From NCBI GenBank assembly GCA_019912885.1, contig JAIOHV010000149.1, forward strand, positions 33,441-97,440: DNA of 64,000 nt, written 5' to 3'. Below are positions 7,960 through 48,846 of this stretch, in pieces. Source of the stretch: a bacterium. Its GTDB lineage: Bacteria > Lernaellota > Lernaellaia > JACKCT01. The stretch's first letter is position 1; each line of letters opens with the position of its first letter. A model generated the notes under the pieces. That model had not been told where the DNA came from. It saw only the letters and a program-made list of their open reading frames with translations, and did no database searches. The translations under genes and the position numbers were made by a program.

Positions 7960-7969
7960 TCCGGCCGCG

Positions 7970-9268
7970 TCATCCGGCCTGCATCGCCTTGAGCGCCGAC
8001 TCGCCGTGATTCAGCGTCTCGTCGATATCGGCCTCGGTGTGCACGGCGGACAAGAACCAGTTGTGATGCGGATGCAGATAGCTGCCGCGCCGCGTCGCCT
8101 CGGCGCAGAATCGCTGCACCTTATAGAGATCCGCGTCGTCCTCGAGCACGAGATACGGCATCGACGCCGGGCCAGTGAGTTTCATCGGATATCCGTAGCG
8201 GTCGCCAAGTTCGGAAAGCCCCTTGCCGAGCCGCTCGCCCATCGCGAACATCGCCGCGATGCCCGCGTCGCGCTCCAGGATTTCCAGCGTCTTCAAGCCG
8301 GCGGCCATGCACATCGATCCGTTCCAGTAGCTGCCTGTGAGGAACACGCGGCTCGCCGCCGCCTTGAGCTCCGGTTTGCCAACCGCCGCTGACAGCGGAA
8401 AACCGTTGCCGATCGCCTTGCAATACACGGCGATGTCCGGCACGAAACCGAAAAAGTCGTGCGAGCCGTGAATCGACAGCCTCCAGCCCGCGCGCACATC
8501 GTCGAGGATCAAAAGCGCGCCGTTCTTGTCGCAAAGCTCGCGCACCTCGCGCCAGAAACCCGGCGCGGGCAGCACGCTCTCGCCGAACGCGGGGTGGTGG
8601 TAGGGCGTCATGATGACGGCGGCGATTTGGCCGCCCTGCGTCTTGAAGAGGTCCGCGAGCTGGTCGGCGCGGTTCCAGTCGAAAAACAGCATGTTGCTGC
8701 GATCTTCCGGAATGACGCCGCCGTGCCCCGGCGTGCACCACGCGTGCGCGCCGTGATACGTACCGCGAACCATCGCGATCTTCGAGCGATCCGTGTGCTC
8801 GCGCGCGACCAGCGTCGCCCATGTCGTCAGGTCGCTTCCGTTTTTTGCGAAGACCGACCACCCAGCAAAGGGCACGAGCGTCGTCAGCCGCTCGGCGAGC
8901 TTCAACATGCGCGGGCCCGGGTGGTTGAAGCAGTCGCCTTCTTGCAACGCTTCGATCGCCGCCGCGTTCACTTCGTCGTTCGCGTAACCGATGACCATTG
9001 GCCCGTACGCGCACATGTAATCGATGAACGTATTGCCGTCGATGTCCGTGTAACGCGCGCCTTTGCCCCAGGCGGCATAATAAGGAAACGACCCCGGCAC
9101 CATCAGGGCGGGGCTCTGGTGGCCGTAGATGCCCTGGGGGATGAGCCGGGTCGCCTTGACGAAGGTTTCGATGTTCTTGTCGAAGGTGCGCAGCTTTTCC
9201 ACCGGCGCCGCGATCGTGGCCGCGGCCCTGGTTTCGATCTCGTCCACGTGGGAGGGTTCGGTCGCCAT
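7970..9268 (-). CDS. Class III PLP-dependent aminotransferase (glutamate-1-semialdehyde aminomutase-like)
   Basis: 432 aa; AT-III motifs GPMVIGYANDEV, ILDDVRAGWRLS, and the lysine region CKAIGNGFPLSA. Confidence 0.8.
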   Translation of the reverse strand: MATEPSHVDEIETRAAATIAAPVEKLRTFDKNIETFVKATRLIPQGIYGHQSPALMVPGSFPYYAAWGKGARYTDIDGNTFIDYMCAYGPMVIGYANDEVNAAAIEALQEGDCFNHPGPRMLKLAERLTTLVPFAGWSVFAKNGSDLTTWATLVAREHTDRSKIAMVRGTYHGAHAWCTPGHGGVIPEDRSNMLFFDWNRADQLADLFKTQGGQIAAVIMTPYHHPAFGESVLPAPGFWREVRELCDKNGALLILDDVRAGWRLSIHGSHDFFGFVPDIAVYCKAIGNGFPLSAAVGKPELKAAASRVFLTGSYWNGSMCMAAGLKTLEILERDAGIAAMFAMGERLGKGLSELGDRYGYPMKLTGPASMPYLVLEDDADLYKVQRFCAEATRRGSYLHPHHNWFLSAVHTEADIDETLNHGESALKAMQAG

Positions 9269-9277
9269 GATCGTCTC

Positions 9278-10081
9278 CTAACTCAGATAGACCGGCAGGC
9301 GGTCCAGAGCAGCGTTCAACTTGTCCGCGATTGGCACGAAGCCCTTGATTTTGAGACGGCAGGAGCCGACAAGCGCCATTGCGTCGCCCTCGCCGCCGAA
9401 GAGCTCGAACGCCGTGTCGTGATCGGCGATCTCCATGATCATGCTCGGATTTTCGACGATGCCCTTTTGCGGGAAGAGCCGTCCACCCTTAATGACCACG
9501 TGCGCCGCGGGACCGTTCGGGATGTGGATCAGGCCGATGCCGTCGCGGATCGACGCGGCCGCCAGGCGCGCCTTTTCATCGTGCTCCGCGACGGGCGAAA
9601 GCCCGAACGTCACCGTGTTCAGCAAGAGGCCGACATGAAATTCGAAAACCTTACGGTCCTTGAGCATTTCCGGCGTCGGCTTGAGGTAATGCTCCATCCG
9701 CTTGGCGAGCTTGTCAAAACCCTTCAGCACTTTCAGGCGCGTCAGCCCGCGCAGCGGGATCGGCATGCTGAAACCGCCCGTTCCGGCGAACGTCCGGTTG
9801 AGATGCTCGGCGGACAGGAAATGCAGGTGCACCGTCGGGCGCTTCGTGCGTCCGGCATGCCAGCGCACGCGGCCGTCGCCGATCTCCAGATGCGCCGCGA
9901 TGCCGCCGGGGCAGGAAAACTGCAAGACCTCGTTCCAGCCCCGGATGATGTCCCGGGCCTCGTCGTCAAACGCGACGACGTCCTCGAGATTCTGGAGCAC
10001 GGCCGACAAATGCAGCCGCGCGAGCACGTTTTGGTCGATCATGGGATAAGCACCTGAAATGACGGAACTTGGCGAAAGCAT
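9278..10081 (-). CDS. SCP2 (sterol-carrier-like) domain-containing protein, first gene of the minus-strand operon
   Basis: C-terminal GEGDAMALVGSCRLKIKGFVPIADKLNAAL resembles the SCP2 lipid-transfer fold; the N-terminal half may hold a second SCP2-like unit. Weak assignment. Confidence 0.4.
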   Translation of the reverse strand: MLSPSSVISGAYPMIDQNVLARLHLSAVLQNLEDVVAFDDEARDIIRGWNEVLQFSCPGGIAAHLEIGDGRVRWHAGRTKRPTVHLHFLSAEHLNRTFAGTGGFSMPIPLRGLTRLKVLKGFDKLAKRMEHYLKPTPEMLKDRKVFEFHVGLLLNTVTFGLSPVAEHDEKARLAAASIRDGIGLIHIPNGPAAHVVIKGGRLFPQKGIVENPSMIMEIADHDTAFELFGGEGDAMALVGSCRLKIKGFVPIADKLNAALDRLPVYLS

Positions 10082-10183
10082 AGGTCAGATGAGGGGGCGC
10101 TTCAAGCGAGGGCGCGTCGTCTTATTTGCATTCACCGGGGGCGTTGCTATCGTTCGCGCCTTGTTAACACTCGTCGCCGGTCC

Positions 10184-11254
10184 ATGAAAGAAACGCTCGG
10201 TATCGGAATCGTCGGCTGCGGCCGCATCGCGGATATGCATGTCCCGGGTTACCGGCGGCGCGCCGATGCGCGCGTCGTTGCGATTTGCGACACGGACGAG
10301 GCGCTTCTCGAACGCCGGCGCGTTGAGTGGGACGTGCCGCGCGCGTACACGCGATACGACGAGCTGCTCGCCGATCCCGCGGTGGACGCCGTGGAGATTC
10401 TCACGCCGCACGATACGCACGCCGCGCTCGTCGTCGCCGCCGCGCGGGCGAAGAAGCACGTCAGCGTGCAAAAGCCAATGGCGGTCACCGCCAAGCAATG
10501 CGACGAGATGGCGCGGGCGTGCCACTATGCCGGGGTGACGCTGCGCGTTTTCGAGAACTTCATTTTCTATCCGCCGTTCGTGCGTCTGAAACAGCTCGTC
10601 GAAGCCGGCGAGATCGGCGAGGTGTTGACCGCGCGCGCCAGACTCGGCGCCGCGTCGGGCGGTTGGCGCGTGCCGCTTTCCGCGTGGCTGTGGCGGCTTG
10701 ATCCCGTGCGCGGCGGCCCTGGCGCGACGATCTACGACGACGGTTATCACAAATTTTCGATGCTGGTGGACCTGTTCGGACCGATCGCGGGCGTGAAGGC
10801 AAACGTCGATCGCTCGCTTGCGGTCATCGACGCGCCGGCGGTCATCAACATCACATTCCGCGACTCGCCCGCGCTCGCCACGTTCGACGCCGCCTTTTTA
10901 CCGAACCTGCGCGTGCGTTCGAAGTATTACGGCGCGGACGAGCGGCTGGAGCTTGTCGGAACGCGGGGGACGATCCGCCTGACGCGCTGCACCGCGCGTC
11001 TTTTCGACGAGCCGGCGGTCGTGCTCGAACGCGACGGCCGCACCTACGGTTTCGACGACGTTTCCGACGACTGGCTCGAAAGCTTCATCGGCAGCACGCA
11101 CGATTTCATCGACGCGCTACGGGCGTTTCGTGCGCCACGCCTGGAGCCGTCGGTGGGTAAGCATCTTGTGCAAGCCGCACTCGCCGCGTACGTCTCGAAC
11201 GCAACCCGGCAGGTCGTCGATCCCGCCACCGTTACCGGCGAGGAAGCGATTTGA
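10184..11254 (+). CDS. Gfo/Idh/MocA family NAD(P)-dependent oxidoreductase
   Basis: N-terminal Rossmann GIGIVGCGRIA...VAICD plus a C-terminal alpha/beta domain. 356 aa. Confidence 0.8.
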   Translation: MKETLGIGIVGCGRIADMHVPGYRRRADARVVAICDTDEALLERRRVEWDVPRAYTRYDELLADPAVDAVEILTPHDTHAALVVAAARAKKHVSVQKPMAVTAKQCDEMARACHYAGVTLRVFENFIFYPPFVRLKQLVEAGEIGEVLTARARLGAASGGWRVPLSAWLWRLDPVRGGPGATIYDDGYHKFSMLVDLFGPIAGVKANVDRSLAVIDAPAVINITFRDSPALATFDAAFLPNLRVRSKYYGADERLELVGTRGTIRLTRCTARLFDEPAVVLERDGRTYGFDDVSDDWLESFIGSTHDFIDALRAFRAPRLEPSVGKHLVQAALAAYVSNATRQVVDPATVTGEEAI

Positions 11255-11303
11255 ATTGGGAATTGCGAATGGCGAATTGGGAATGCCGCCGAAAGGCTCA
11301 TCA

Positions 11304-11579
11304 ATGAGTCCGGCGGGTGCGCGTATTCGGGCGTCGATCGCCTATTCCGTCATGCGCGCAGGGCTTGCCTTGCCGGACGCCTTTGTCGGGCGGCTGGTCG
11401 GGTTTGCTTCGTTCGTCTTTCGGCTGTTTGGCGGCGACGAACGCGCCTATGAGGCCATGCGTGACGCGCGCAGCGTTTTTCTCACCGATCCGCGCGGCGC
11501 GATGTTGGTGCGGCGCATGGTGCGCGATGTCGATCGTCGCCGTCTCGTGATGATCCTTCGCGGGCGGTTTTTGCCGTGA
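11304..11579 (+). CDS. Small hypothetical protein (doubtful)
   Basis: 92-aa ORF between two oxidoreductase genes, high GC3, no recognisable domain. The upstream part of the listed ORF overlaps the preceding gene. Confidence 0.2.
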   Translation: MSPAGARIRASIAYSVMRAGLALPDAFVGRLVGFASFVFRLFGGDERAYEAMRDARSVFLTDPRGAMLVRRMVRDVDRRRLVMILRGRFLP

Positions 11580-12607
11580 GCGCACGCGACGATATGCGCG
11601 TGGCGCTCTGGGGCCTTGGCCGGGCGGCCGAGCGCTGGATCGCCGCCTACAAGACCGCGGGCGTTGCCGTTGTGGGCGCCGGCGATCCCGGCGACGCCTT
11701 GGACGAATTCGCGGCGACGCACGGACTGGCGCGCCGATTCGCAAGCGTCGAGGAGATCATCGACGACGAGAGCATCGGTCTTGTGGAAATCGACATCCCG
11801 GCGCCGCAGGCGGTGAAGGCCGCGTCGCTCCTGCTCGAGGCCGGTGTGCCGGTCGGTCTGCGTGCGTCGGCGGTGACATCGGAGGCCGATGCGCAGGCGC
11901 TCGAGGAGGCGCGCAAGCGCCGTGTGCCGCTGCGACTCCATTCCCCCGTGTTTTATGCGACGCCTGCCGAACGTGCGCGGGACGACCTCGATCGGGATGC
12001 AATCGGCGATGTCCAGACGCTCTTCGCGCGGGCGATCGCGACGGCAACCATCGGCGTCGCGTCCGCGTGGGAAGACGTGTTCGACGCCCTGCCGCTCATG
12101 CACCTGATCGGCCCCGTGCGTTCGTTGCACGTAACGCATGGGAGAGATGACGCGATGCTTATCGCGTGGGCCTCGAATATCGAGCGCGGCGCCGGGCGGT
12201 TCGGATGTTTTGAGGCGATCGTTCGCGCGCGCCCGCCGCTCGACGCGTCCGCGCTCGCCGCTTACGCGACGACGCCGGCGACAGAGGCGGCCATCAATCC
12301 GGCCCCGGACATTTCGTTCGAGGTTTCGGGAACGGACGGTTATTTGTTCGGCGCGCATCTCGCGGGAGGCGAGGGCCGCGCGCCGTATTCGCGCTACATT
12401 CGCGGTACTCTCGACGCGCCGCTCGGAGATCTGCCGCTTGGGGTGGAGGCGATGTTCGCCGCGAGCGCGGCCGATATCGTGCGCGCCGTCCGCGCGCGCA
12501 CCGCGCCTCGATTCGGCATCGAATGGGCGCACGAGATCGGGCGGATACGGTCGGCCATCAACGCGTCGCGCGAAAGCGGTCAGGAAGTGTTGATCGAACC
12601 GGATTGA
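11576..12607 (+). CDS. Gfo/Idh/MocA-like oxidoreductase
   Basis: N-terminal MRVALWGLGRAAERWIAAYKTAGVAVVGAGDP dinucleotide-binding region. 343 aa. Confidence 0.65.
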   Translation: MSARDDMRVALWGLGRAAERWIAAYKTAGVAVVGAGDPGDALDEFAATHGLARRFASVEEIIDDESIGLVEIDIPAPQAVKAASLLLEAGVPVGLRASAVTSEADAQALEEARKRRVPLRLHSPVFYATPAERARDDLDRDAIGDVQTLFARAIATATIGVASAWEDVFDALPLMHLIGPVRSLHVTHGRDDAMLIAWASNIERGAGRFGCFEAIVRARPPLDASALAAYATTPATEAAINPAPDISFEVSGTDGYLFGAHLAGGEGRAPYSRYIRGTLDAPLGDLPLGVEAMFAASAADIVRAVRARTAPRFGIEWAHEIGRIRSAINASRESGQEVLIEPD

Positions 12608-13156: not shown

Positions 13157-15190
13157 TCAGCATCCGCAGCCGCTGTCGTTATCATCGTCGTCGCCGAAAT
13201 CATCGTCGTCGTCCGCGATATCGTCATCCGGGTCGTCGTCCGCGCCGGGCTCGAGAACGATGACCGCGACGCTCGAGGATGCGCTACCGCGCGGTCCGGT
13301 TGCCGTCAGCGTCGCGACGTATTCGCCGGGCTGGTCGTATATGTGCATCGTGTTTTGTTCGTCGCTTGTCGAGGCGTCACCGAAATCCCATTCAAAGCCG
13401 GTAAGACACGCCGCGTCCACGACGATGTGCCCGGTGAACGAAACGGACAGCGGCGCCACGCCGTTACGCGGATCGGCTTCGGCGTGAACGCCGGGCGCCA
13501 GGCAATGTTCGGCCAGCACGACCGCGTCGATATCCGCGCCGGGGCTCTCGCCGGCGATGCGATCTCCGTTGTCGCGGATCAGCACGTATCGGAAACCGGA
13601 CTTGAGAACTGGCGTAAAATTCGACGTCCCCGTGCCGTTTCCGAGCGACGTGAACGGGCTGTCGCGATTGGGCGAGGCGAGGACCTCGTAGTCGTCCGCG
13701 CCATCGGATTCGTCCTCGAAGACGGTCAGATCGATCTCGGGCGAAGTGGAGAGGCTCTCACCGAGATCGAGCATCAGCGCGCCGCCGCCGCCGATCGAAT
13801 ACGAACGCCCGTCCGGAAGAAACAGCGCATCGTGCGGCAGCGTCGTGTTGTCGAAATCGGCGAAGGGCCGGTTCATGTCCGTCATCATCACGCGGATCGC
13901 CGATCGCTCCGGCTCATGCTCTTGTGCCGGCAACGCAATTTCCAGGTCGTCCACCGGGCCGCTTGCGGTGTCGATCGAGAGCACGCGGCTCGCGTGCCCG
14001 TTCGCATGAACGAATACGCGATGTTCGCCCGGCCCGACGACGCGCGCGAACGTGCCGGCCTGGGCGGAGCTGTACGCCGGCCACAGGCCGTCCACCACGA
14101 GGACCGCCTCGAGCGGATCGCCTTTTGCGTCCGTGACGCGGCCGCGAATTCCCTCGCCCGAGCTTCGGATCGCGTCGAGCATCGCGGCGATGTTGCGATC
14201 GATATAACCGGGGATCTTCGCGGCCGCGGGGTTTTTCGGCACGGAGAGCTCGAGAATCACCGACAGCGCGCCACCGGCCTCGTAGCTTGTTTCCTCCGAG
14301 ATTCCGTTGACCATGTACCAGTCGTAACCGTTGATGATCGGATAACCCGACAACTCCGAATAGCGATCGGACATGGCGATCAACAACGCCTCGTCGGGCG
14401 TGGGTTGCGGCGTCGAATCGAACGGGTAGTTCACGACCTCGGCGCCCGAATGAAGCTGCATCGCGATCGCGGGCGCGGTTTCGATGTAATACGCCGACAG
14501 CGCGCGCGTCTCGCTTTCGCTCAAGGCGGTGTCCGAGCCGCCGGCCGGCACGTGGTTGATCGCGAAGTTGCGGTTGAGATCGACGCCGTTTCCGTTGGCG
14601 CGACGGTGCGCCGCATGGCCGTCCGGGTTCGCGATCGGGATGACGCGCACATCGAATGCGTCGAGGATCGCATCGGCTTCCGCGCTACCGGACACGAGCT
14701 CGCCAACGAGCGCCATCAGCACCTCGGTGCCGATTTTCTCGTCGCCGTGGATCGCGGCATCGAACACGACGCGCGGCCCGTCGCACGGCGCGCGGCAAAG
14801 GCGCGCGGCGAAAATATCGCGGCCAGTCTCGGATGAGCCGATCGCGCCGACGCTGACCGAGTCGGGGTGCGTCGCCGCGAGGTCGAAAAGGGCGTCCACC
14901 ACGTCGTCGTAGCCGTAGTAGCCGGTCGGCGCTTTTGGACTTGCTTTCGATTCGACGGCAAAACCCCACGCGGCAAGCCGGGGAATTTCCGAGGCATCGA
15001 CCGATAACGTCACGACATCGCCGTGCCGCGAAGCGATATCGAACCCCGCATACGCGAGAAAATCGAGCCTCGCGCGATCCGGCACGCGCACGTCGATTTC
15101 CATCGCTTCGGCGCGGGCCGCGCGGGGGATCGCCGCGCAAAGAAAAAACACCGCGATGGCGGCGAATCGTGAAATCGTCTTGCGTCCCAT
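13157..15190 (-). CDS. Secreted M14 zinc carboxypeptidase with PKD domain and C-terminal poly-Asp tail ending in ...GCGC
   Basis: Signal peptide MGRKTISRFAAIAVFFLCAAIPRAARA. M14 motifs HGDE(zinc)...NPDG...NRNF. PKD-like FEWDFGDASTSDEQN...YDQPGEYVATLTATG. C-terminus DDDPDDDIADDDDDFGDDDDNDSGCGC then stop. Start ATG at 15190. Confidence 0.8.
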   Translation of the reverse strand: MGRKTISRFAAIAVFFLCAAIPRAARAEAMEIDVRVPDRARLDFLAYAGFDIASRHGDVVTLSVDASEIPRLAAWGFAVESKASPKAPTGYYGYDDVVDALFDLAATHPDSVSVGAIGSSETGRDIFAARLCRAPCDGPRVVFDAAIHGDEKIGTEVLMALVGELVSGSAEADAILDAFDVRVIPIANPDGHAAHRRANGNGVDLNRNFAINHVPAGGSDTALSESETRALSAYYIETAPAIAMQLHSGAEVVNYPFDSTPQPTPDEALLIAMSDRYSELSGYPIINGYDWYMVNGISEETSYEAGGALSVILELSVPKNPAAAKIPGYIDRNIAAMLDAIRSSGEGIRGRVTDAKGDPLEAVLVVDGLWPAYSSAQAGTFARVVGPGEHRVFVHANGHASRVLSIDTASGPVDDLEIALPAQEHEPERSAIRVMMTDMNRPFADFDNTTLPHDALFLPDGRSYSIGGGGALMLDLGESLSTSPEIDLTVFEDESDGADDYEVLASPNRDSPFTSLGNGTGTSNFTPVLKSGFRYVLIRDNGDRIAGESPGADIDAVVLAEHCLAPGVHAEADPRNGVAPLSVSFTGHIVVDAACLTGFEWDFGDASTSDEQNTMHIYDQPGEYVATLTATGPRGSASSSVAVIVLEPGADDDPDDDIADDDDDFGDDDDNDSGCGC

Positions 15191-15277: not shown

Positions 15278-16576
15278 ATGTCGAGCGCGCGAGTTCTCAG
15301 GATCAGCCTCGTGACGACCGTCTTTCTGGCTGTCGCGCTCGGGATCATTGTGTCGCCGGCCGCCGCGCTTATCCTGCCGGCCTTCGTATCGGGCGCGTAC
15401 CTTTCCGCGGTCACATGGCGGCGCATCACGCTGACGCGCGCCGCGATGCGCCGACGCGAACGCGAGCCGATCCCGGCCGTCGCCCACAAGAATCTGCTGA
15501 TCCTCATCCCCGCGCGCAACGAACAAGACGCGATCGGCGGCTGCCTGAAAAGCCTGACGCATCTGAACTGGCCGGCGGACAAGCGGCGCGTGATCGTGAT
15601 CGATCATGCGTCAAACGACGACACCGGCGATATCGCGCGCGTATTTGCCGAAAAGCGGCCGGGGCACGCCGTCGTGCCTTGCGAGGACGGGGGCGGAAAA
15701 GGTGCGGCGCTGAACGCCGGGCTCGCCGCCGCGCGCGCGGACGGATTTGAACCGGCCTACATTTATGTATTGGACGCCGACGCGAGAGTGGCGCCGGATG
15801 CCGCCGCGTGGCTTTCCCGCGCGATGGACGCGCCCGGCGTTTTTGCGGCACAGGGTTCGATGCATGTCCGCAACGCGGGCGCGAGCCTGGCGGCGACGTA
15901 CGCATCGATCGAGGCGCTCGTACATCAAGGCATCACGCTATGCGGCGCGTCCCGCCTCGGCCGCGTCGTGTCGCTTCTCGGCAGCAATGATCTTGTTTCG
16001 GCCCGGTGGATCGACGGGCACGGCGGCTTTCCGCAAGACACGCGCCTTGAGGACGTGGAGATGACACTCGCGATCCATGACGGCGGCGGGCGCGTGGCGT
16101 TCGAACCACGCTCGGTCGCCACGATCGAGGCCGCGCGGCGCGCAACGAGCGCGTTTGGCCAGCACCGTGCGTGGGGGCGGGGATTTCTGGACGCAGCGGC
16201 GCGCGCCGATGCGAAGGCCGATGATTTCGCGTCCGGCGAACGGGCCGAGCGACACTCGCTCGCCTTCCGCCTCGACCGCGCGTTGTTTGAACTCGGTTAT
16301 CTCGATCGCCCCGCGTTGCTGGTGTTCGCCGCCTGCGCCGCGTGGGCGTCCGTCGCATACGAAACGCATGCGCTCTGGATCGCGCTCGTGGCGTATCTTC
16401 TCGTTCCGGCGTATCAAATTCTCGCCGCGCTGTGGCGATATCAACGCCCGCTTGCCGACTATCTCAAACTTCCGCTTTTGCCGTTCGCGTTTGCGTTTGA
16501 CCTGTTGGCGCAGTCCCTCGCCCTCGTCGACTTTTTTCGCGGCGGCAAGGCGGCATGGCGGCGGACCAGGCGATGA
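15278..16576 (+). CDS. Membrane-integrated family 2 glycosyltransferase (processive synthase/PgaC-like topology)
   Basis: N-terminal TMs, GT-A motifs LLILIPARNEQDAIGG...IDHASNDDTGD...YIYVLDADA, and C-terminal TMs. Confidence 0.75.
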   Translation: MSSARVLRISLVTTVFLAVALGIIVSPAAALILPAFVSGAYLSAVTWRRITLTRAAMRRREREPIPAVAHKNLLILIPARNEQDAIGGCLKSLTHLNWPADKRRVIVIDHASNDDTGDIARVFAEKRPGHAVVPCEDGGGKGAALNAGLAAARADGFEPAYIYVLDADARVAPDAAAWLSRAMDAPGVFAAQGSMHVRNAGASLAATYASIEALVHQGITLCGASRLGRVVSLLGSNDLVSARWIDGHGGFPQDTRLEDVEMTLAIHDGGGRVAFEPRSVATIEAARRATSAFGQHRAWGRGFLDAAARADAKADDFASGERAERHSLAFRLDRALFELGYLDRPALLVFAACAAWASVAYETHALWIALVAYLLVPAYQILAALWRYQRPLADYLKLPLLPFAFAFDLLAQSLALVDFFRGGKAAWRRTRR

Positions 16577-17490
16577 CCGGCACAAGCTCCGATGCGCGCG
16601 ATCTTTTCGAGGCCACGTACGCGCTCGTCATCGCGCACAATTCGGGCGAGGCGCTTGTGCGTTGCGCGGAGCGGCTCGCCGCGATTTTTCCCGGGCGCGT
16701 CATCGTTTTTGACAACGCGTCGGCGGATGACGCGCCGTCGTGCCTTCCCGATGGCATCCGCCGCTTCAGGAGTCCGATAAACGTCGGCTATTGCGCGGCC
16801 GTAAACGAATTGGCGGACCGCGCCTTGAACGCCGGCGCGCGGGCGATCGTCGTCGTCAATCCGGATGCCGCGATCGACGAGGCCTCGGCGCGAAATCTCG
16901 TCGCGCCGCTTGCGGGCGCGGGCGTCGCCGCGGTTTACGGCAAGGTCGTGCGCGCGGACGATCCGTCGGTCCTGGAGGGAGCGTGGGGGGAGGCGACCTT
17001 CCGCCACCGCGCGGTACGTTTGCGCGGGGAGGGCGCGCGCGACGGACCGCGCTGGAATACGCCGCGCCGCGTCCTTTCCGGTCATGGCGCGGCGTTCGCG
17101 GCGCGGGTCGATGCGTTTTTGGCGGCGGGCGGCCTTGCGCCGGAGTTGTTCGCGTATCAGGACGAAGCTGAATTTGGGCTGCGCCTTGCGAAAGCGGGCT
17201 ACGCCAGCGTTTACGAGCCCCGCGCCGTGATTCGTCACGATCGTCCGAGTGACGCCGCGTACCGCGCGCGAAAGGCGTATTTTGTCGCACGCAACAGCGT
17301 ATTCATCGTCACGCGGCACGGCGGATTCGCGCAGCGCGCGAAGTTCGCGTTATTCCTATTGGCTGGGGCGTTGCTATACTACCTCCCTCGCGCCATCTTC
17401 GCGGATGCCGAGGCCCGCGCTTCGCTTGGTGGCTGGATGGACGGCCTGCGCGGGCGTTTCGGTCCACGGCACGACGGAAGTCCCATTTGA
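16555..17490 (+). CDS. Family 2 glycosyltransferase
   Basis: YALVIAHNSGEAL...VIVFDNASADD...VVVNPDA GT-A signature. Overlaps the neighbouring genes by a few nt, so it is operonic. Confidence 0.7.
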   Translation: MAADQAMTGTSSDARDLFEATYALVIAHNSGEALVRCAERLAAIFPGRVIVFDNASADDAPSCLPDGIRRFRSPINVGYCAAVNELADRALNAGARAIVVVNPDAAIDEASARNLVAPLAGAGVAAVYGKVVRADDPSVLEGAWGEATFRHRAVRLRGEGARDGPRWNTPRRVLSGHGAAFAARVDAFLAAGGLAPELFAYQDEAEFGLRLAKAGYASVYEPRAVIRHDRPSDAAYRARKAYFVARNSVFIVTRHGGFAQRAKFALFLLAGALLYYLPRAIFADAEARASLGGWMDGLRGRFGPRHDGSPI

Positions 17491-18797
17491 CGCATCGATA
17501 CATCATTCTCGGCGGCGGGCTCGCCGGCCTGACCATGGCCGACGAGCTTCTCGCGAGGGGCAACGAGGCGACGGTCCTTGAGGCGGCGCCCGAGGTGGGC
17601 GGCCTTGCGCGCAATATCGAGGTGCGCGGGCATCTGTTCGACATCGGCGGCCATCGCTTCTTTTCCGACAAGCAGGAGATCAACGACTGGTTCCGCGCAC
17701 TGATGGAAGGCGAAATCGTCGAGGTCATCCGCAAAAGCCGCATCCTCATGAACGGCCGTTTCGCGGATTATCCCCTGCGGCCGGTCAACGCATTTTTCGG
17801 CATGGGGCCGATGCAGTCGCTGAAAATCGTTCTCGGCTACCTGAATGTCGTCGGACGAAACGGCGGGCCGCAGGAGAATTTCGAGGATTGGGTCGTCGCC
17901 CGGTTCGGACGGCCGCTATACGACATCTATTTCGGCCCGTATACGGAAAAGGCGTGGGGCGTCGATCCGACGCGCATCAGCGCCGAATGGGCCGCGCAGC
18001 GCATCCAGCTCGTTTCCCTGACCGAGGCGGTCCGCAAGGCGGTGCTGCCGTCGAAGGATTCGCCGCGCACCTACGTCTCGCGCTTCATGTATCCGCGCCG
18101 CGGCATTGGCCGAATCACGCAACGACTGGCCGAACGCGTCCGTTCGCGGGGTGGCGACATCCGCCTGAAACACGCCGTCGAAGCGATCGAAAAGCGCGGA
18201 TCGCAATACGCGGTTTCCGCGGGCGGCGCGACCTTCGAGGGCGACCGCATTGTCTCCACGATTCCCGTGCCTCTTCTGGCGAACTTTCTTGGTGAGCCGA
18301 TGGGCGAGGGCGCGCTGGAATACCGCTGCCTGCGTTGCGTCTTCTTGCTCCTGAACCGGCCGCGCGTCACCGACGATACGTGGATCTACGTGCCTGACCG
18401 CAACGTGACGTTCGCGCGCATCCACGAGCCGAAGAACTGGTCTCGCGAGATGGTGCCCGGCGACGGCACGAGCCTGTGCCTGGAGGTCTTTTGCACCGAG
18501 GGCGACGAGATCTGGAACATGCCCGGCGACGAGTTGCATCGGCTCTGCGTCGACGATCTGGCGCGCCTGAAGTTCATCGATCCCGGCGACGTCGCGCACG
18601 CGCACGACATCCGCGTGCGGAATGCGTATCCCGTGTTTCTTGTCGGATACCGGCCGATCCTCGATGACGTTTTGCGTCGCGTCGCGGCGCACGAAGGCGT
18701 TTATACCGTGGGGCGCACCGGGTCGTTCACCTACACCAACATGGATCAGGTCGTCGACCAGGCGTTACGTCTGACCGAACGGATCGTCGGCGCGTAG
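17487..18797 (+). CDS. FAD-dependent oxidoreductase (amine-oxidase/UDP-galactopyranose-mutase-like fold)
   Basis: N-terminal GXGXXG (IILGGGLAGLTMADEL) followed by a flavin-binding fold. Precise substrate unknown. Confidence 0.55.
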   Translation: MTHRYIILGGGLAGLTMADELLARGNEATVLEAAPEVGGLARNIEVRGHLFDIGGHRFFSDKQEINDWFRALMEGEIVEVIRKSRILMNGRFADYPLRPVNAFFGMGPMQSLKIVLGYLNVVGRNGGPQENFEDWVVARFGRPLYDIYFGPYTEKAWGVDPTRISAEWAAQRIQLVSLTEAVRKAVLPSKDSPRTYVSRFMYPRRGIGRITQRLAERVRSRGGDIRLKHAVEAIEKRGSQYAVSAGGATFEGDRIVSTIPVPLLANFLGEPMGEGALEYRCLRCVFLLLNRPRVTDDTWIYVPDRNVTFARIHEPKNWSREMVPGDGTSLCLEVFCTEGDEIWNMPGDELHRLCVDDLARLKFIDPGDVAHAHDIRVRNAYPVFLVGYRPILDDVLRRVAAHEGVYTVGRTGSFTYTNMDQVVDQALRLTERIVGA

Positions 18798-18801
18798 GCG
18801 T

Positions 18802-20145
18802 ATGGGGCGCATCCTCGGCTCCCCGCATCCGGCCCGATTCCTCGTCGTCGCCTCGAGCGGTTTTGCTTGCGCGCACCTCACCGGACTTGTCTTGTGGTCG
18901 GGCCTCGGGGGCATGGACGCGCCGGAATGGCGCGCGCTCGCCATCGCGCTTGGCGCGGTGATCGCCTGGACAATGGCGATTCTCTTTGCCGTTGACCGTT
19001 CCGGCCGCGGTGGCGAACTCGTCACGCGGATCGCGCCTTCCCGGCTTGCGCGGATGGCCGGGTTTGCCACCGTTGCCGCCGCCCTCACGGCGGTGGCGGT
19101 GACGATGATTTTCTGGAACGACGAGTCAAGCAACGTCGCCGCCGCGAACTTCCTGATCGAAAAGGGGTTCGCGAATTACTTCGCCTCCTACGCGACGATC
19201 AACGACTGGCTTGGCCCGCATCATCCACCGGTGCTGCCGGTGATCTACGCGTCGTATTACGCCGTCTTCGGCGCAAGCGTCGGCCTGGGCCGCGTCCTTG
19301 CCGTTGTTTGCTCGCTTCTGGCGCTCGGTGTCGGATATCAGTGGATCACGCATCGCGCCGGTGGGCGCGCGGGTTTTCTTGCCGTCGCGGGCGCGCTATC
19401 GATTCCGATGACGCTATTCGCCGGCACGGCCGCGATCCTCGACGCGCCGTTTTTTCTTTTTTTCACGCTCGCCGTCATCGCGTGGGAGCGCTTTCTCGAA
19501 AGCCGAACCTATCGCGACGCCATCGTCTGCGGCTTTATCGTCGGCCTCGCGATGCTTTCGCGATACAACGGCGTGCTTTTGCCCGTGCTGTTTTTCGCAC
19601 AGCTCGTCCTCCTTGGCGAAGAGCGCTCGCGGCTTCGCGACCCGCGCACCTGGGTCGCGCTTGCGACGCCGGCGATCGTCGCGCTGCCGTGGATTCTCGT
19701 CGCGGCGGCGAGCGGCACGCTGATGCCGCAGGTCGAGCGCATTCTTTCGTTCGTGCTTATCGCCGTCGTTCCGCCCGGCGGAGCGTTTTATCTGAAACAA
19801 ATGATCGTCCCGCTATTGCCGTTCATGATCGGCATCTGGAATCTGCCGGTCTGGATTCACGGCGGCATGGCGGCGTGGCGCGATCGCGACGGCGCGCTCG
19901 GACGGCGGCTTGTCGTGCTCGCGGCGGTGTACGTGGTCATTCTCGCGGCGACGTTGCCGAATCCGCGCTACATTCTCTCGATCGCGATCCCGCTCGGATA
20001 TCTGGCCGCGCGCTCGATCGAGGCGGTCGAAATGCGCGAGGGTCGCGGGTTTGCGTACGCGGCGCACCTTCTGGGCCTTACGGCCATTCACGTCGTGTTT
20101 GTTCTACATCAAACGAGCGACCGGACGATCTACCTTTTCTATTGA
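18802..20145 (+). CDS. Polytopic membrane glycosyltransferase of the GT39/GT83 (PMT/ArnT-like, lipid-linked sugar donor) family
   Basis: More than 10 predicted TM helices, with N-terminal loop motifs typical of ArnT/PMT-type transferases. 447 aa. Confidence 0.6.
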   Translation: MGRILGSPHPARFLVVASSGFACAHLTGLVLWSGLGGMDAPEWRALAIALGAVIAWTMAILFAVDRSGRGGELVTRIAPSRLARMAGFATVAAALTAVAVTMIFWNDESSNVAAANFLIEKGFANYFASYATINDWLGPHHPPVLPVIYASYYAVFGASVGLGRVLAVVCSLLALGVGYQWITHRAGGRAGFLAVAGALSIPMTLFAGTAAILDAPFFLFFTLAVIAWERFLESRTYRDAIVCGFIVGLAMLSRYNGVLLPVLFFAQLVLLGEERSRLRDPRTWVALATPAIVALPWILVAAASGTLMPQVERILSFVLIAVVPPGGAFYLKQMIVPLLPFMIGIWNLPVWIHGGMAAWRDRDGALGRRLVVLAAVYVVILAATLPNPRYILSIAIPLGYLAARSIEAVEMREGRGFAYAAHLLGLTAIHVVFVLHQTSDRTIYLFY

Positions 20146-33197: not shown

Positions 33198-33246
33198 GGA
33201 ATTTTGCAAGTTTAAGTACCGGAGATATTGCGAGAGGATTTCGCGA

Positions 33247-34825: not shown

Positions 34826-34833
34826 CGCCTAAA

Positions 34834-35836: not shown

Positions 35837-36919
35837 ATGCGTGTTAATCGGCTGTCGATGTTGGCGCTATGCGTAGCCTTGTTTGCTTGCTCGCTGGGCT
35901 GCGGTTGCGGATGCGGCGATGACGACGACGATTCCTCCGGCGATGACGCGGACGACGACGCAGGCGACGACGATTCGGGCGATGACGATGACAATGCGGG
36001 CGATGACGACGACGCGACGGATGACGATGCGGACGACGACGCTACGCCGGTATTTACATCAATCCCCTCCGGTTCGTTCACCATGGGAAGCCCCGTTTCC
36101 GAAGCGGGACGATACGACAACGAGACGCAACACACCGTGACGCTGACGCGGGGATTCGAGATCGCCGTTCACGAAACGACGCAGGACGAATACGCGGCGC
36201 TGATGACCTGGAATCCGAGCAAGTTCGGTCCCGAATGGCCGTACGACGAATATCCGGAATGCGGGGGCGATTGTCCGGTCGAAAACGTGAGCTGGTTCGA
36301 TGCCCTGTCTTACGCGAACGAGCTTTCGGAGCAGGCCGGTTACGATCCGTGTTTTCTCATCGGCGAAATCGCGTGCGCGGATGGTTCGCTCGTCGGCTCA
36401 AACGCCGCAAGTTGCCGCAACCAGGTTCAGCGTGGCATCGCTGACGCGCAGGTCACTCTGCACGCAGTGACGTCGGTCTACGATTGCGAAGGCTATCGCC
36501 TGCCGACGGAGGCCGAGTGGGAGTACGCGGCGCGGGCGGGCGCCCTTTCGGCCTATCACGACGGCACGGACAGCGACGGAACGCACCTTCTATGCGAGAC
36601 GCCGTTCCCCCTGACGGATATCGCCTGGTATTGCGCGAACGGGAACGACACGACGCACCCCGTCGCGAGCAACACGCCTAACGCCTGGGGGCTGTTCGAC
36701 ACGAGTGGCAACGTCTTTGAATGGACGTGGGACTGGTTCGGCGACTACCCCGGTTCGGTGATCGATCCGGAAGGCGGATGGCCCGCAAACGACAGGGTCA
36801 GCCGCGGAGGTCATTTCGGCGCGGATGCCGCGGCCGTACGTTCCGCGTATCGCGGTGGCATCGGTCCAGGGGCGCAGGATCGTTTTCAGGGATTTCGTCT
36901 CGTTCGAACCGAGCCCTGA
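35837..36919 (+). CDS. Lipoprotein with poly-Asp linker and FGE-sulfatase (SUMF1/formylglycine-generating-enzyme family) domain
   Basis: Signal peptide plus lipobox MRVNRLSMLALCVALFACSLGCGCGCGDDDDDSSGDDADDDAGDDDSGDDDDNAGDDDDATDDDADDDA. Then FTMGSPVSEAGRYDNETQHTVTLTRGFEI...HETTQDEY...NVFEWTWDW of the FGE-sulfatase fold. RBS GGAGGAG upstream. Confidence 0.75.
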   Translation: MRVNRLSMLALCVALFACSLGCGCGCGDDDDDSSGDDADDDAGDDDSGDDDDNAGDDDDATDDDADDDATPVFTSIPSGSFTMGSPVSEAGRYDNETQHTVTLTRGFEIAVHETTQDEYAALMTWNPSKFGPEWPYDEYPECGGDCPVENVSWFDALSYANELSEQAGYDPCFLIGEIACADGSLVGSNAASCRNQVQRGIADAQVTLHAVTSVYDCEGYRLPTEAEWEYAARAGALSAYHDGTDSDGTHLLCETPFPLTDIAWYCANGNDTTHPVASNTPNAWGLFDTSGNVFEWTWDWFGDYPGSVIDPEGGWPANDRVSRGGHFGADAAAVRSAYRGGIGPGAQDRFQGFRLVRTEP

Positions 36920-45567: not shown

Positions 45568-47292
45568 TTAGCAAGCCCCACTTGATTGCGGCACCAGGAT
45601 GAGCGCGTCGCCGCTGTTCATCCACACGGTCGCCGGCGCGGCGGAAGCGTCGCCGTTAGCATCAAGCGCGCACCAACCGCTTCCGACGCTGTAATCCACG
45701 CCGCCGCGCTGGCCGTCCATGCGCACGACCACCTCGGCGGTCGTGCCGTGCAGGCCCTCGAAGCGCCGGCGGAAGATGCCGTCGTGCTGCTCCCACGCCG
45801 GGCCGGCCGGTTCGCCGATATTCTTTTCGAAGATCCCGAACCACACCGAGTCCTTCAGCGGCTCGTACGGATTCCACGCGGGTTTGATGACGAATACATC
45901 GCGGCCGTTGCGGAACATGTAATACGCGGCGAGATAAAACATCAGCTCGTCAGCGTCCGGGTTCGAACTGCCGCCGTTATAGAACGTCTCGAGCGCGAGG
46001 AAGCTGCCCTCGGCCGCGAGCTTCTCCGACGTGTCGATGATTGAACGCATGCGATCCGGCGTGTTGAGATTACCCCAGTCCGGGTGATGCAACGCCGACT
46101 CGCACCACGGGCCGACGTCCTTGCTCGCCAGGTCCGCGACCATATCGACCGAGCCGTCCCACGAGCAATACGCGCCGCTGTTGAAGACGAAGCGCGCCTC
46201 GGAGTGCGTCTTTTGGACTTCGAATCGGATGTGGGCCATCAGGTCGCGCACGCCGCCAAGCCACCAGTCGTTCATCTTGTCCCAGTTCGCCTCGACATCG
46301 TTTGGGATCTCCAGGACGTCATTCGGCGTCAGGAAGTTCGGCAGGTAATAGCTGTCCTCTTCCTCGATCGGGCCGCCGATGTTGTCGTAGCCGACACCGC
46401 CGAAGCCTTCGACCTCCACGGCGCGTTTTGCGCGCCACGCGTTGTAATCCTTGCCGCAGCCGCTGGTGATGTCGATGAGCCAGACGTATTCGTCCCAGAC
46501 GAGCGTCTTGATGCGCGCGTCCGTCATGGTCGCGGCGCTGCCCTGGTAACCCTTTTGCCAGAGCTCCACCCAGCATCCGTGTGCGTGCCAGCGCGCCTCG
46601 ATCAGGCCGTCGTTTTTCGCATGGAGAAAACAGCTCTCGCCGTCTCCGTGCTGCGGGTAGGCGTTTAGAAATTCGCCGAACTCCGCCACGCGCGCGTCGA
46701 ACGTCTGGTCCTTCTCGCCGATGATGGGATCGGCGCAGCTTCCGCTGCTCTCGTTCGTAAGGAACAAATGCGCGAGGTCCCACTTGAGCCAGGACCCCTG
46801 GGGATTCGCGTTACGCAGCGCTTCCCAGGCCATCTCGGTGCCTTCGTCGTTGTAATTGATGATGGCCAGATCGACGTTCTCGGCCGCCCAGGCGGTGTCT
46901 TCCTGGAAGATTTCGCCTTCGTAGCCGCCGAGGTCGTAGTAGTAGTGGAAATGCACGATGCCGTAGTTCAGGGCGTCGGCGTTTTCCTCCCAGGGCGGAA
47001 TCACGTCGTCATCGTCGTCGCCGAAATCGTCGTCATCCGGGACATCGTCGTCATCGCCGCTGTCGTCGTCATCGCCGGCATCGTCATCGTTTCCCTGCGA
47101 AGCGTCATCGTCTCCGGAGGTGGTGTCGTCATCCGCGGGGGAATCGTGGCCGGGGTCAACGCCGGCGGAATCGTTTCCCGATCCGTCGGAGCCCCGTGAC
47201 GCGGACGATTCCTCTCCGGAAAAGCAGCTGGTTGTTGCGAGGAGAAAAACGGCAAGAAGCGCGACGGGGACGAACAAGGACAGGCGTTGCAT
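45568..47292 (-). CDS. Lipoprotein with ~60-aa poly-Asp linker and C-terminal hydrolase-like (possible TIM-barrel glycoside-hydrolase-like) domain
   Basis: MQRLSLFVPVALLAVFLLATTSC lipobox, then DDDTTSGDDDASQGNDDDAGDDDDSGDDDDVPDDDDFGDDDDD, then a ~470-aa domain without a confident family match. Confidence 0.5.
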   Translation of the reverse strand: MQRLSLFVPVALLAVFLLATTSCFSGEESSASRGSDGSGNDSAGVDPGHDSPADDDTTSGDDDASQGNDDDAGDDDDSGDDDDVPDDDDFGDDDDDVIPPWEENADALNYGIVHFHYYYDLGGYEGEIFQEDTAWAAENVDLAIINYNDEGTEMAWEALRNANPQGSWLKWDLAHLFLTNESSGSCADPIIGEKDQTFDARVAEFGEFLNAYPQHGDGESCFLHAKNDGLIEARWHAHGCWVELWQKGYQGSAATMTDARIKTLVWDEYVWLIDITSGCGKDYNAWRAKRAVEVEGFGGVGYDNIGGPIEEEDSYYLPNFLTPNDVLEIPNDVEANWDKMNDWWLGGVRDLMAHIRFEVQKTHSEARFVFNSGAYCSWDGSVDMVADLASKDVGPWCESALHHPDWGNLNTPDRMRSIIDTSEKLAAEGSFLALETFYNGGSSNPDADELMFYLAAYYMFRNGRDVFVIKPAWNPYEPLKDSVWFGIFEKNIGEPAGPAWEQHDGIFRRRFEGLHGTTAEVVVRMDGQRGGVDYSVGSGWCALDANGDASAAPATVWMNSGDALILVPQSSGAC

Positions 47293-47646: not shown

Positions 47647-48846
47647 ATGCACAGGCCGGCCGGTTTTGCCGTCGTTTTTCTGCTCCTGGCGTTCGTGACG
47701 ACGGCGTTCACCGCCGGCTGCACTTGCGGCGATGACGACGATGACGGCAGTGGATCGCCGCCCGACGACGACGCTCTCAATGACGATGCGACGGATGACG
47801 ATACGGGCGATGACGATTCCCTGGACGACGATTCGATGGACGACGATGCGGCTGACGACGACACGGTGGACGACGACGCCGGGGATGACGATTCCCTGGA
47901 CGACGACATGACGGACGACGATACGGCTGACGACGATTCGGCTGACGATGACATCGCCGATGACGATACGGGCGACGACGACACCCTGGATGACGACACG
48001 GCGGACGACGATACCGGCGACGACGACACGTCGGACGACGATACCGGCGACGACGACATCGCCGACACGACAATCACGATCATGACGATGAACCTGCAGA
48101 CGCCGTTTCTGAACTTCGCCGATCCCGACGATCGCCTGCAAATGGTCGCCGATGTCATCAATGACCGGCAGCCGGATTTCGTCGGCGTGCAGGAAGCCGC
48201 GGAACTTTTATTCGTGCCGAACCGGGCGCCGGAACTCGCGGCGCTCACCGGCTACGACTACATTTATAAGGAAACGCACAACTTCCCGCTGCTGTTCAAG
48301 GAAGGCATCGCGATCTTTTCGCGCTGGCCGATCCTTTGGGATCAGGACCAATGGCTGCCGCACCCGGAATTCCTGACGGTTCTGCGCCGCGCCGTCCTCG
48401 GCGTTCGCGCCGACACGCCCTGGGGCGAGATGTATTTTTACGACTCGCATTTCACGATCGATGACCGCGACGTCATCAAGGCCGATCAGGCGCTGACCGC
48501 GTTCGAATTCATCGAGCAATACCCGTCGCCGATCCCGTCGTTTTTCGCCGGCGATCTCAATTGCGAGCCCGACCGCCTGGCGATGGAATTCCTGCGCGGC
48601 GAGACGATTTATCAGGGGCGGTACGGCAACTTCGTCGATGCGTGGCTCGAACTGTATCCGCATGACGTGGGCTACACCTATCCCGCGGACGACCCGGAAA
48701 AGCGCATCGATTACGTGTACGCGATTCCGGGCAATCTCGGCGAAGCCGTTGCGATGGAATGCGAACACGTACTCGACGCGCCCGACGCGGGGCTATGGGC
48801 TTCCGACCACATCGGCGTGATCTGCGAATTCGAGTGGGCGCCGTAG
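47647..48846 (+). CDS. Lipoprotein with ~110-aa (DDDxx)n poly-Asp linker and endonuclease/exonuclease/phosphatase (EEP) family domain
   Basis: MHRPAGFAVVFLLLAFVTTAFTAGCTCGDDDDD, then ~20 tandem DDDxx units, then EEP motifs (TIMTMNLQ...FVGVQEA...DHIGV). Confidence 0.7.
   Translation: MHRPAGFAVVFLLLAFVTTAFTAGCTCGDDDDDGSGSPPDDDALNDDATDDDTGDDDSLDDDSMDDDAADDDTVDDDAGDDDSLDDDMTDDDTADDDSADDDIADDDTGDDDTLDDDTADDDTGDDDTSDDDTGDDDIADTTITIMTMNLQTPFLNFADPDDRLQMVADVINDRQPDFVGVQEAAELLFVPNRAPELAALTGYDYIYKETHNFPLLFKEGIAIFSRWPILWDQDQWLPHPEFLTVLRRAVLGVRADTPWGEMYFYDSHFTIDDRDVIKADQALTAFEFIEQYPSPIPSFFAGDLNCEPDRLAMEFLRGETIYQGRYGNFVDAWLELYPHDVGYTYPADDPEKRIDYVYAIPGNLGEAVAMECEHVLDAPDAGLWASDHIGVICEFEWAP

Follow-up and report, generated by a model that had tools for sequence, protein, structure and literature searches.

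The window analysed here, a 64-kb stretch of contig JAIOHV010000149.1, contains a minus-strand gene for a secreted M14 carboxypeptidase with a PKD domain, whose last residues form a C-terminal tag composed of a poly-Asp run and a Gly-Cys-Gly-Cys motif (Table 1). Its open reading frame (ORF) likely starts with the ATG at position 15190 (MGRKTISRF...), and its translation finishes with ...VIVLEPGADDDPDDDIADDDDDFGDDDDNDSGCGC, i.e. with DDDDNDSGCGC immediately before a TGA stop codon, which confirms the order of poly-Asp and GCGC at the extreme C-terminus reported in a first-pass annotation of this DNA. The 677-residue product is 100% identical to NCBI entry MBZ0272898.1 (P0001 in our sequence set), named 'DUF2817 domain-containing protein [bacterium]' and located on a contig of 98 kb, and it is encoded by the sole plausible coding ORF of the window with a two-Cys ending. 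A lipobox of the form [LVI][ASTVI][GAS]C is not present in its N-terminus, which reads ...FFLCAAIPRAARA followed by EA: the only Cys is preceded by Leu at position -1, and the AxA site lies after it.

An AlphaFold2 model built with a 12-ortholog alignment has a mean predicted local distance difference test score (pLDDT) of 79.5 over the whole protein, with confident domains. The signal peptide is modelled as a helix at residues 3-19, the CarboxypepD_reg region is all-beta with high pLDDT, and the middle domain between CarboxypepD_reg and PKD consists of beta strands with a pLDDT of ~72-88. Residues ~648-677, which include the tag, show a pLDDT of 43-51 and lack secondary structure.

Table 1. 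Coordinates of the tagged gene, its parts and the poly-Asp lipoproteins encoded in the window.
Feature	Position	Strand	Basis or remark
M14 carboxypeptidase-PKD gene, secreted, 677 residues	13157..15190	-	ORF list and translation
Signal peptide, signal-peptidase-I type, MGRKTISRFAAIAVFFLCAAIPRAARA before EA, residues 1-27	15110..15190	-	Sequence; putative cleavage site
Peptidase_M14 zinc carboxypeptidase domain, residues 101-333	14192..14890	-	Pfam PF00246, E=5e-32
CarboxypepD_reg beta-sandwich, residues 348-420	13931..14149	-	Pfam PF13620, E=6e-6, below gathering score
Beta-rich middle domain, residues ~428-565	13496..13909	-	No Pfam match; kept in all orthologs
PKD domain, residues 571-645	13256..13480	-	Pfam PF18911 and PF00801
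Poly-Asp tether, residues 651-673, DDDPDDDIADDDDDFGDDDDNDS, predicted disordered	13172..13240	-	Sequence; pLDDT <51
Terminal Gly-Cys-Gly-Cys, residues 674-677, GGC TGC GGA TGC	13160..13171	-	MYXO-CTERM-type signature at extreme C-terminus
TGA stop immediately 3' of last Cys	13157..13159	-	Sequence
FGE-sulfatase lipoprotein 35837-36919: lipobox Cys22, GCGCG, poly-Asp (residues 22-68)	35900..36040	+	
Exo_endo_phos lipoprotein 47647-48846: lipobox Cys25, T-C-G, 112 residues of periodic DDDx	47719..48066	+	
Third lipoprotein 45568-47292: lipobox Cys23 (TTSC), Ser/Gly-rich stretch, poly-Asp linker (residues 54-96)	47005..47226	-	

Conservation of the C-terminus

The nearest homolog is P0002, with 36% identity, an identical architecture and the terminus ...EEDDGGNGCCG. 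A profile search over 1.84 billion representative proteins added ten intact full-length orthologs and an eleventh, P0094, whose C-terminus is apparently frameshifted. In all ten intact sequences from this search, an acidic low-complexity run precedes a terminal xCGC or xCCG motif, the last four residues being NCCG, GCGC, ACCG, ACGC, GCGC, GCGC, GCGC, GCGC, ACCG and GCCG, respectively. Across the set of 12 full-length orthologs, which comprises P0001 and 11 others (30-37% identity), every protein (12/12) has two Cys within its last three to four residues after an acidic run, a pattern that is far beyond chance, and none has a membrane helix after the tail. The first-pass annotation had proposed a comparison of orthologs, which might have lacked the tail or continued into a transmembrane helix and a basic end; all of them keep the tail, and none runs on in this manner. 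For orthologs with fetched DNA, which lie on contigs with a GC content of 45-72%, the residues of the tail are kept while the codons vary. A signal-peptidase-I-type N-terminus is found in ten of the other 11 orthologs, the exception being P0077 (...LLAC...), from Candidatus (Ca.) Alcyoniella australis of the phylum Ca. Lernaellota, which is ambiguous in this respect. When a genome collection was queried with a two-sequence alignment, just the organism of P0002 and two distant M14 genes were matched.

It could be argued that a sequencing or assembly error, a frameshift or recoding conceals a canonical membrane helix and basic tail, a concern already raised by the first-pass annotation. However, when the 150 nucleotides past the stop codons of 46 tagged genes were translated in three frames, no contiguous hydrophobic segment was found to continue from the Cys motif in any frame at any of these stops, and the hydrophobic stretches flagged there appear to belong to the signal peptide of the following gene or to ORFs of their own further downstream. 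Stop usage at the 46 genes is mixed (TGA 23, TAA 10, TAG 13), and since all three stop codons are used, no specific recoding is at work. Moreover, independent assemblies from many samples concur on the tail. An artefact of this kind is therefore exceedingly improbable, and the three-frame translations together with the mixed stops led us to reject frameshift, readthrough or recoding into a membrane helix: no corrected frame extends into a CTERM tail, and the stop codon of the window gene directly follows the last Cys, as the earlier reading of a motif devoid of a helix and basic tail had it.

The ortholog in GCA_020845895.1 terminates in ...DDDDDNGACCG and is syntenic with the window, with GT2, GT2, amine oxidase and PMT_2 genes on one side and GFO/IDH/MocA, SCP2, aminotransferase and hexapeptide transferase genes on the other. 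In the window, the M14 gene lies within an envelope-glycan block (15278-20145 on the plus strand, and 7123-12607), also seen in the fetched locus L128, that comprises two GT2 genes, a flavin amine oxidase/UDP-galactopyranose-mutase-like gene and genes for PMT_2, GFO/IDH/MocA, aminotransferase and hexapeptide transferase proteins. This block is syntenic with GCA_020845895.1 but not with the more distant orthologs.

Tagged proteins in other loci

The tag extends well beyond M14 peptidases. A metagenome scan with the pattern GACGAYGAYGAYN{0,15}GGNTGYKGNKGNTRR matched at least 120 loci, and among the matches listed, 32/120 loci have an ORF whose D-rich tail is closed in frame by the pattern, with GCGC as the dominant ending, some GCCG endings and several contigs that contain two tagged genes. 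The scan places the tail on at least ~40 secreted proteins with signal peptides of the signal-peptidase-I type. The complete tagged proteins possess AxA-type signal peptides nearly throughout, not lipoboxes, and some carry poly-Asp at both termini. Within the fetched loci, 49/60 ORFs with D-rich C-termini have a Cys within their last six residues, and most of the 11 that lack a terminal Cys seem to come from loci matched by chance, with acidic tails that are unrelated. Additional, untargeted tagged copies were present in the flanking DNA of L001 (four), L005 (two) and L132 (two). The first of these loci, the 12.5-kb contig of P0002, encodes four tagged proteins, including two tandem M14-PKD paralogs, a GH172 protein that terminates in ...DDDNDDDDDYDGGGGPFPCCKVSGGCCGCDI and a 103-residue protein (113-430) in which a signal peptide, a stretch of about 40 Asp and a final ...GGVCGC account for the entire chain. 

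According to Pfam, the cargo of 31 tagged proteins includes peptidases of the M14, C25 (gingipain), C1, M28 and S8 families, other enzymes (PAD_porph, NAGidase (GH84), GH18, GH2, GH10, GH172/DUF2961 and Metallophos/purple acid phosphatase) and adhesin-like repeats (FG-GAP, PKD and BNR/sortilin), a spectrum that is typical of surface-sorting systems. In line with this notion, distant homologs with the same M14 and CarboxypepD_reg core carry a Por_Secre_tail (as in P0009 and P0011), FlgD_ig or Dockerin domain in the C-terminal slot of the tail; since alternative anchors thus alternate on one core, the poly-Asp-GCGC tail occupies the place of a sorting or anchoring module. The resemblance to the type IX secretion system extends to its cargo, which likewise includes C25 gingipain-like, PAD_porph and M14 proteins. 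However, its Por_Secre_tail domain and the dockerins are folded units of 55-80 residues, whereas the tag has just four residues behind a disordered acidic stretch, and P0001 did not match Por_Secre_tail (PF18962/TIGR04183).

We found no match for the tail among the curated models of NCBIfam and Pfam and no earlier account of a poly-Asp/Cys C-terminal tail in the searchable literature or in curated family libraries, nor are such tails mentioned in the paper describing the phylum Ca. Lernaellota. Collectively, these results establish that the tag is real, conserved and general across cargo families. Its hosts form a group of diderm bacteria that are uncultured and of which at least one belongs to Ca. 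Lernaellota, and we regard the tail as a new form of Cys-containing C-terminal sorting signal that is widespread in one candidate phylum at the least and in related metagenome-assembled genomes.

Two arrangements of tagged genes deserve mention. Tandem pairs of tagged M14-PKD paralogs occur in three unrelated contigs (L001:1-2531, L005:7909-12097 and L132:7650-12685), and the upstream copy in L005 terminates in GCGCS, one residue past the motif. In addition, some small proteins consist of the tag alone, without a cargo domain (L001:113-430, the ORF ending at 3501 in L076, and P0297). They combine a signal peptide, which is of the lipobox type in L076 and P0297, with 40-60 residues of poly-Asp and a Cys motif in the form of VCGC, GCCG, or GCEC followed by a membrane helix and RRRR; such proteins may act as surface polyanions or adaptors.

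Relation to MYXO-CTERM and other sorting signals

The C-terminal signal that most closely resembles the tag is MYXO-CTERM, whose signature contains an invariant Cys and is followed by a membrane helix and then by an Arg cluster (Haft 2023, preprint 10.1101/2023.06.07.544157; mBio 2025, PMC11980579). Its signature has been called the 'GCGC motif', a second Cys is frequent, and TraA shows an adjacent CC (10.1101/2023.06.07.544157; PMC11980579). According to the published model, the protein is exported by Sec and kept in the inner membrane by its helix, its Cys is lipidated by an unidentified, possibly Lgt-like enzyme, and the myxosortase MrtX, a CPBP/Rce1-family protease, then cuts distal to the Cys, after which the T2SS (type II secretion system) moves the protein to the surface (PMC11980579; 10.1101/2023.06.07.544157). 

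The window protein shares some of these features: a short Cys-containing motif (...SGCGC) is located at the extreme C-terminus of a signal-peptide-bearing protein and follows a disordered region. Others are missing, namely the transmembrane helix after the motif (in any frame of the window gene and in the 12 orthologs) and the Arg-rich cytoplasmic end cluster (in the window gene and the orthologs); in addition, neither P0001 nor its 35-residue tail matches NCBIfam TIGR03901 at E<=10. Because the helix, the Arg cluster and the hidden Markov model (HMM) score all fail, we class the window tail as a helix-less variant and not as a member of MYXO-CTERM. The two signals agree in their position on Sec-exported surface proteins, in the preceding disordered region and in the presence of many substrates per genome; they differ in that the spacer of the tag is almost pure poly-Asp, its hosts are uncultured non-myxobacterial lineages, and it is not hit by the HMM.

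A direct link between the two forms is provided by L111, which contains three tandem genes with poly-Asp Cys tails. Its second gene terminates in ...DDDDDSGC-SVGRYSTAVPLTVIMLVLGIMPMLIGRMIKR, and its third (8630-9340) in ...DDDDDDNDDGCGC-SANPYAAGFPLTALMLVIGLAPLLFSRRKR, i.e. in a poly-Asp-GCGC segment followed by a membrane helix and RRKR; the latter tail scores 22.4 bits against TIGR03901 (cutoff 20). In L018 and L022, the identical 13-mer DDDDDDNDDGCGC is directly followed by a stop codon. As this segment is common to the tripartite tag of L111 and the helix-less tags of L018 and L022, the window tail represents the same module, stopped after the Cys motif. Its likeness to MYXO-CTERM, suspected from the outset, is hence borne out by the published GCGC signature and by a tripartite form that has an identical prefix and passes the model, and we regard the kinship suggested by these sequences as well supported. 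A second tripartite example, P0297, displays a lipobox, poly-Asp, GCEC, a spacer, a membrane helix and RRRR; it was retrieved by a protein search with a pure poly-Asp query, which gave 3 hits of 125 candidates. The window tail ends precisely at the position to which the model assigns the mature C-terminus of a MYXO-CTERM protein after cleavage, and since the protein stops at the Cys motif, the tag offers an intramembrane protease nothing to remove and provides no hold in the inner membrane.

The first gene of L111 (7304-7960) terminates in ...DDDNDDGCG-TGA-TGA, which looks like a TGC-to-TGA nonsense change of the last Cys codon, and it adjoins the two genes with full tripartite poly-Asp MYXO-CTERM tails. 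In L018, readthrough past the stop at 2819 (minus strand) yields RRLNEAKSRQRRDDGCGC and then a second stop, so that another DDGCGC-stop lies 18 codons beyond the first, possibly left behind when tag-coding segments were duplicated or recombined with each other.

The coexistence of tripartite and helix-less forms in L111 raises the question of whether a MYXO-CTERM-type tag may simply have lost its helix, leaving the enzyme to be secreted free. In this case, poly-Asp, a strong binder of Ca2+ and mineral surfaces, would confer solubility or bind Ca2+ or surfaces made of mineral or polymer, with GCGC left over as a remnant or acting as a minor ligand for metal. There is a precedent in Myxococcus xanthus TraA, which according to published work is released by the T2SS when its MYXO-CTERM is absent. 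However, a remnant would be expected to decay, yet two Cys and the exact point of termination are kept in 12/12 deeply diverged orthologs and in many cargo families that are unrelated to one another. Moreover, helix-less tags exceed tripartite ones in the flanking DNA (about 11 vs 2), and a C-terminal poly-Asp run is almost always followed by the Cys motif. Free release, along with such a residual role of the motif, is thus distinctly unlikely.

Other known signals are less similar. JDVT-CTERM and Synerg-CTERM are likewise tripartite tags processed by CPBP proteases, with an invariant Cys in a short C-terminal signature (Haft 2023, 10.1101/2023.06.07.544157), but they differ from the tag in having a helix and basic residues and in their motifs, which feature a single Cys, a DP motif or an invariant Pro. 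For PEP-CTERM, GlyGly-CTERM, LPXTG and PGF-CTERM, the named motif and the helix are absent from the window protein, and NCBIfam gave no hit. A closer formal parallel is found in eukaryotic C-terminal prenylation, in which CaaX proteins are processed with the help of Rce1 and Rab proteins ending in -CXC, -CC or -CCX are lipidated on Cys without proteolytic trimming. The -CGC and -CCG termini of the orthologs match these Rab endings, a resemblance of sequence alone. MYXO-CTERM and its myxosortase have already been likened to CaaX and Rce1 (10.1101/2023.06.07.544157; PMC11980579), and by analogy, the tag would relate to MYXO-CTERM as Rab CXC relates to CaaX. We do not claim membership, since the eukaryotic substrates are cytosolic, whereas the tagged proteins are exported by Sec. 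No prenyltransferase is linked to the tag, apart from a UbiA neighbour in one organism only, and no soluble prenyltransferase or escort protein was seen in the window.

Proposed cysteine-based surface retention

Poly-Asp tethers are also found at the opposite end of proteins in the same bacteria, next to the lipobox Cys of lipoproteins. The FGE-sulfatase lipoprotein of the window has the N-terminus ...SLGCGCGCGDDDDD..., i.e. SLGCGCGCG-D5, and the Exo_endo_phos lipoprotein ...TAGCTCGDDDDD..., i.e. TAGCTCG-D5. Among 13 lipobox and poly-Asp N-termini from the window and the fetched loci, 4/13 read C-x-C-G-D5 (CDCG twice, CTCG and CGCGCG), the reverse order of D5-G-C-G-C. The N-terminal GCGC/poly-D modules described in the first-pass annotation are therefore real, but their carriers are unrelated lipoproteins and not members of the M14 family. 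A known counterpart are bacterial lipoproteins that are processed by Lgt, Lsp and Lnt and have linkers of a disordered or acidic nature, among them the acidic signal for surface export in Bacteroidota lipoproteins. Those encoded in the same genomes resemble the tag in that a lipidated Cys lies beside a poly-Asp tether, often in a C-x-C-G context that mirrors ...D5-G-C-G-C; in the tag, however, the motif occupies the other protein end and is accompanied by neither a lipobox nor an adjacent signal-peptide helix. The window also encodes Lnt, two heptosyltransferases and an O-antigen ligase, which identifies its organism as a diderm with a standard lipoprotein pathway.

The third lipoprotein of the window has 574 residues and no Pfam match, terminates in ...VPQSSGAC, so that a lone Cys closes the chain, and shares DDDDFGDDDD between its linker and the M14 tail. 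Another poly-Asp-tethered lipoprotein is probably encoded by the ORF at 1-2280 (plus strand), which is cut at the window start and opens inside poly-Asp (..DDDDAFDDDYADDDRFDDDSDDDSDDD..) of a ~700-residue protein. Just upstream of the FGE-sulfatase gene, the region 31894-35664 holds an ISL3-family transposase gene (31894-33105, minus strand), a C-5 cytosine DNA methylase gene (33647-34825, plus strand) and another ORF and may be a small mobile or restriction-modification island.

Based on this comparison, we suggest that the last ~30 residues of the M14 protein constitute a selected C-terminal tag, consisting of a disordered poly-Asp tether and a Gly-Cys-Gly-Cys-COOH end (or its variant x-Cys-Cys-Gly-COOH), and that this tag may be a helix-less MYXO-CTERM-type sorting domain in which the spacer and GCGC are kept and a stop is placed where the helix and Arg cluster would begin. 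Its carriers are exported by Sec via signal peptides of the signal-peptidase-I type, whereupon the terminal cysteine thiol(s) would provide the attachment point, with S-lipidation as the likeliest link and another thiol-based covalent link as the alternative. The enzyme would then stay attached to the cell surface through a long anionic spacer, without intramembrane cleavage, and poly-Asp could thus serve the same tethering role as after the lipidated Cys of the N-terminal lipoproteins. In this manner, the helix-less tag would directly encode the end state of both the lipoprotein pathway and the MYXO-CTERM model, a terminal Cys beside a tether. We infer that the tagged enzymes are retained at the surface, and we give about even credence to a retention mechanism that is cysteine-based and independent of cleavage and in which poly-Asp forms the tether. 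Within this reading, the chemistry we favour is S-lipidation without cleavage, which is put forward with considerable reserve. A similar reserve applies to the more specific idea that a lipid or another covalent thiol link is set directly on the free C-terminal CxC or CC of exported proteins, without a helix or protease.

The second Cys of the motif also permits a different form of attachment, in which CxC or CC is not lipidated but forms a disulfide or shares a metal with a partner's spare Cys, the partner being a C(lipid)-x-C-G-polyAsp lipoprotein or a protein with a tripartite tag. Peptides with a CGC sequence are redox-active mimics of protein disulfide isomerase, and the HMW1 adhesin of Haemophilus influenzae is tethered via a C-terminal Cys pair. 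A second Cys is indeed present two residues past the lipobox Cys in 4/13 poly-Asp lipoproteins, the frequent second Cys of MYXO-CTERM is also unexplained, and the L076 protein and P0297, which combine a lipobox and poly-Asp with a C-terminal Cys motif, could be adaptors. Nevertheless, the spare Cys is confined to about a third of the lipoproteins, and the specificity for particular partners is not evident. Stable extracytoplasmic disulfides are, moreover, less expected in anaerobic fermenters, and such a lifestyle has been inferred for the described Ca. Lernaellota members in the phylum description paper. We therefore consider thiol docking of this kind unlikely, and the same holds for its consequence, the tethering of secreted enzymes to lipid-anchored partners.

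Several genes in the vicinity of tagged genes could, in principle, point to yet other Cys modifications, such as a radical-SAM Cys-to-Asp thioether (ranthipeptide/QhpC-like), S-glycosylation by GT2 or UbiA-type prenylation. Thioethers between Cys and Asp are an established type of linkage. In L001, the ortholog is directly followed by a UbiA gene, with radical SAM/SPASM and two B12-radical-SAM genes nearby, and two GT2 genes flank the M14 gene in the window and L128. However, these neighbours are not conserved across L005, L006, L127, L129 and L132, the enzymes are cytoplasmic whereas the cargo is exported by Sec, and an acidic low-complexity run of variable length is unlike a defined crosslink scaffold, making such modifications very unlikely. 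As to the individual candidates, the UbiA-family prenyltransferase gene of the P0002 organism (L001:2538-3437) begins 7 nucleotides past the tagged M14 gene, and the radical SAM/SPASM gene and two B12-binding radical SAM genes (L001:9069-12531) lie a few kb beyond it. UbiA was rejected as the cognate enzyme, given that it adjoins the gene in L001 and L002 only and is absent beside it in the window, L005, L006, L127, L128, L129 and L132; a thioether formed by the neighbouring radical SAM/SPASM proteins and S-glycosylation by GT2 were rejected because their neighbourhoods are not conserved beyond close relatives.

Several points weigh against cysteine-based retention without cleavage. It is not apparent how, without a helix, the Cys would come within reach of a membrane-embedded lipid transferase such as Lgt, and lipidation is just a model even for MYXO-CTERM. 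Scans of the window ORFs and the fetched loci yielded no candidate for a tail-modifying or sorting enzyme: no myxosortase (MrtX, MrtC or MrtP) was found among the ~40 window ORFs scanned with Pfam, and no CPBP/myxosortase-like ORF in 837 kb of fetched loci, the latter by a crude motif scan that constitutes a weak test. The window itself holds just one tagged gene, and the best match of its RelA, in GCA_020845895.1, reaches 62%. Finally, the motif frequencies are biased, since the pattern used to draw the metagenome sample already demanded the motif.

To our knowledge, the C-terminal sorting signals described in prokaryotes are all tripartite, with a motif, a helix and a basic tail, and are all paired with a membrane-embedded processing enzyme. 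In a whole group of uncultured bacteria, dozens of secreted hydrolases instead carry the motif alone, at the tip of a poly-Asp tether, and the tripartite version is also used by like organisms. If the short form is anchored, modification of the Cys would need neither a helix nor cleavage, which bears on the question in the MYXO-CTERM field of which enzyme modifies the Cys and what this enzyme recognises. If it is not anchored, GCGC must serve some function in its own right, and the second Cys of MYXO-CTERM would be explained as well. Direct attachment through the C-terminal Cys, if true, would parallel eukaryotic Rab-type Cys lipidation outside the cytoplasm and without cleavage, and would add a third route of bacterial surface anchoring to the lipobox and sortase-like systems. 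The tag, which is also a very short candidate for display or immobilisation purposes, marks a set of extracellular degradative enzymes in metagenomes of uncultured bacteria, including members of Ca. Lernaellota.

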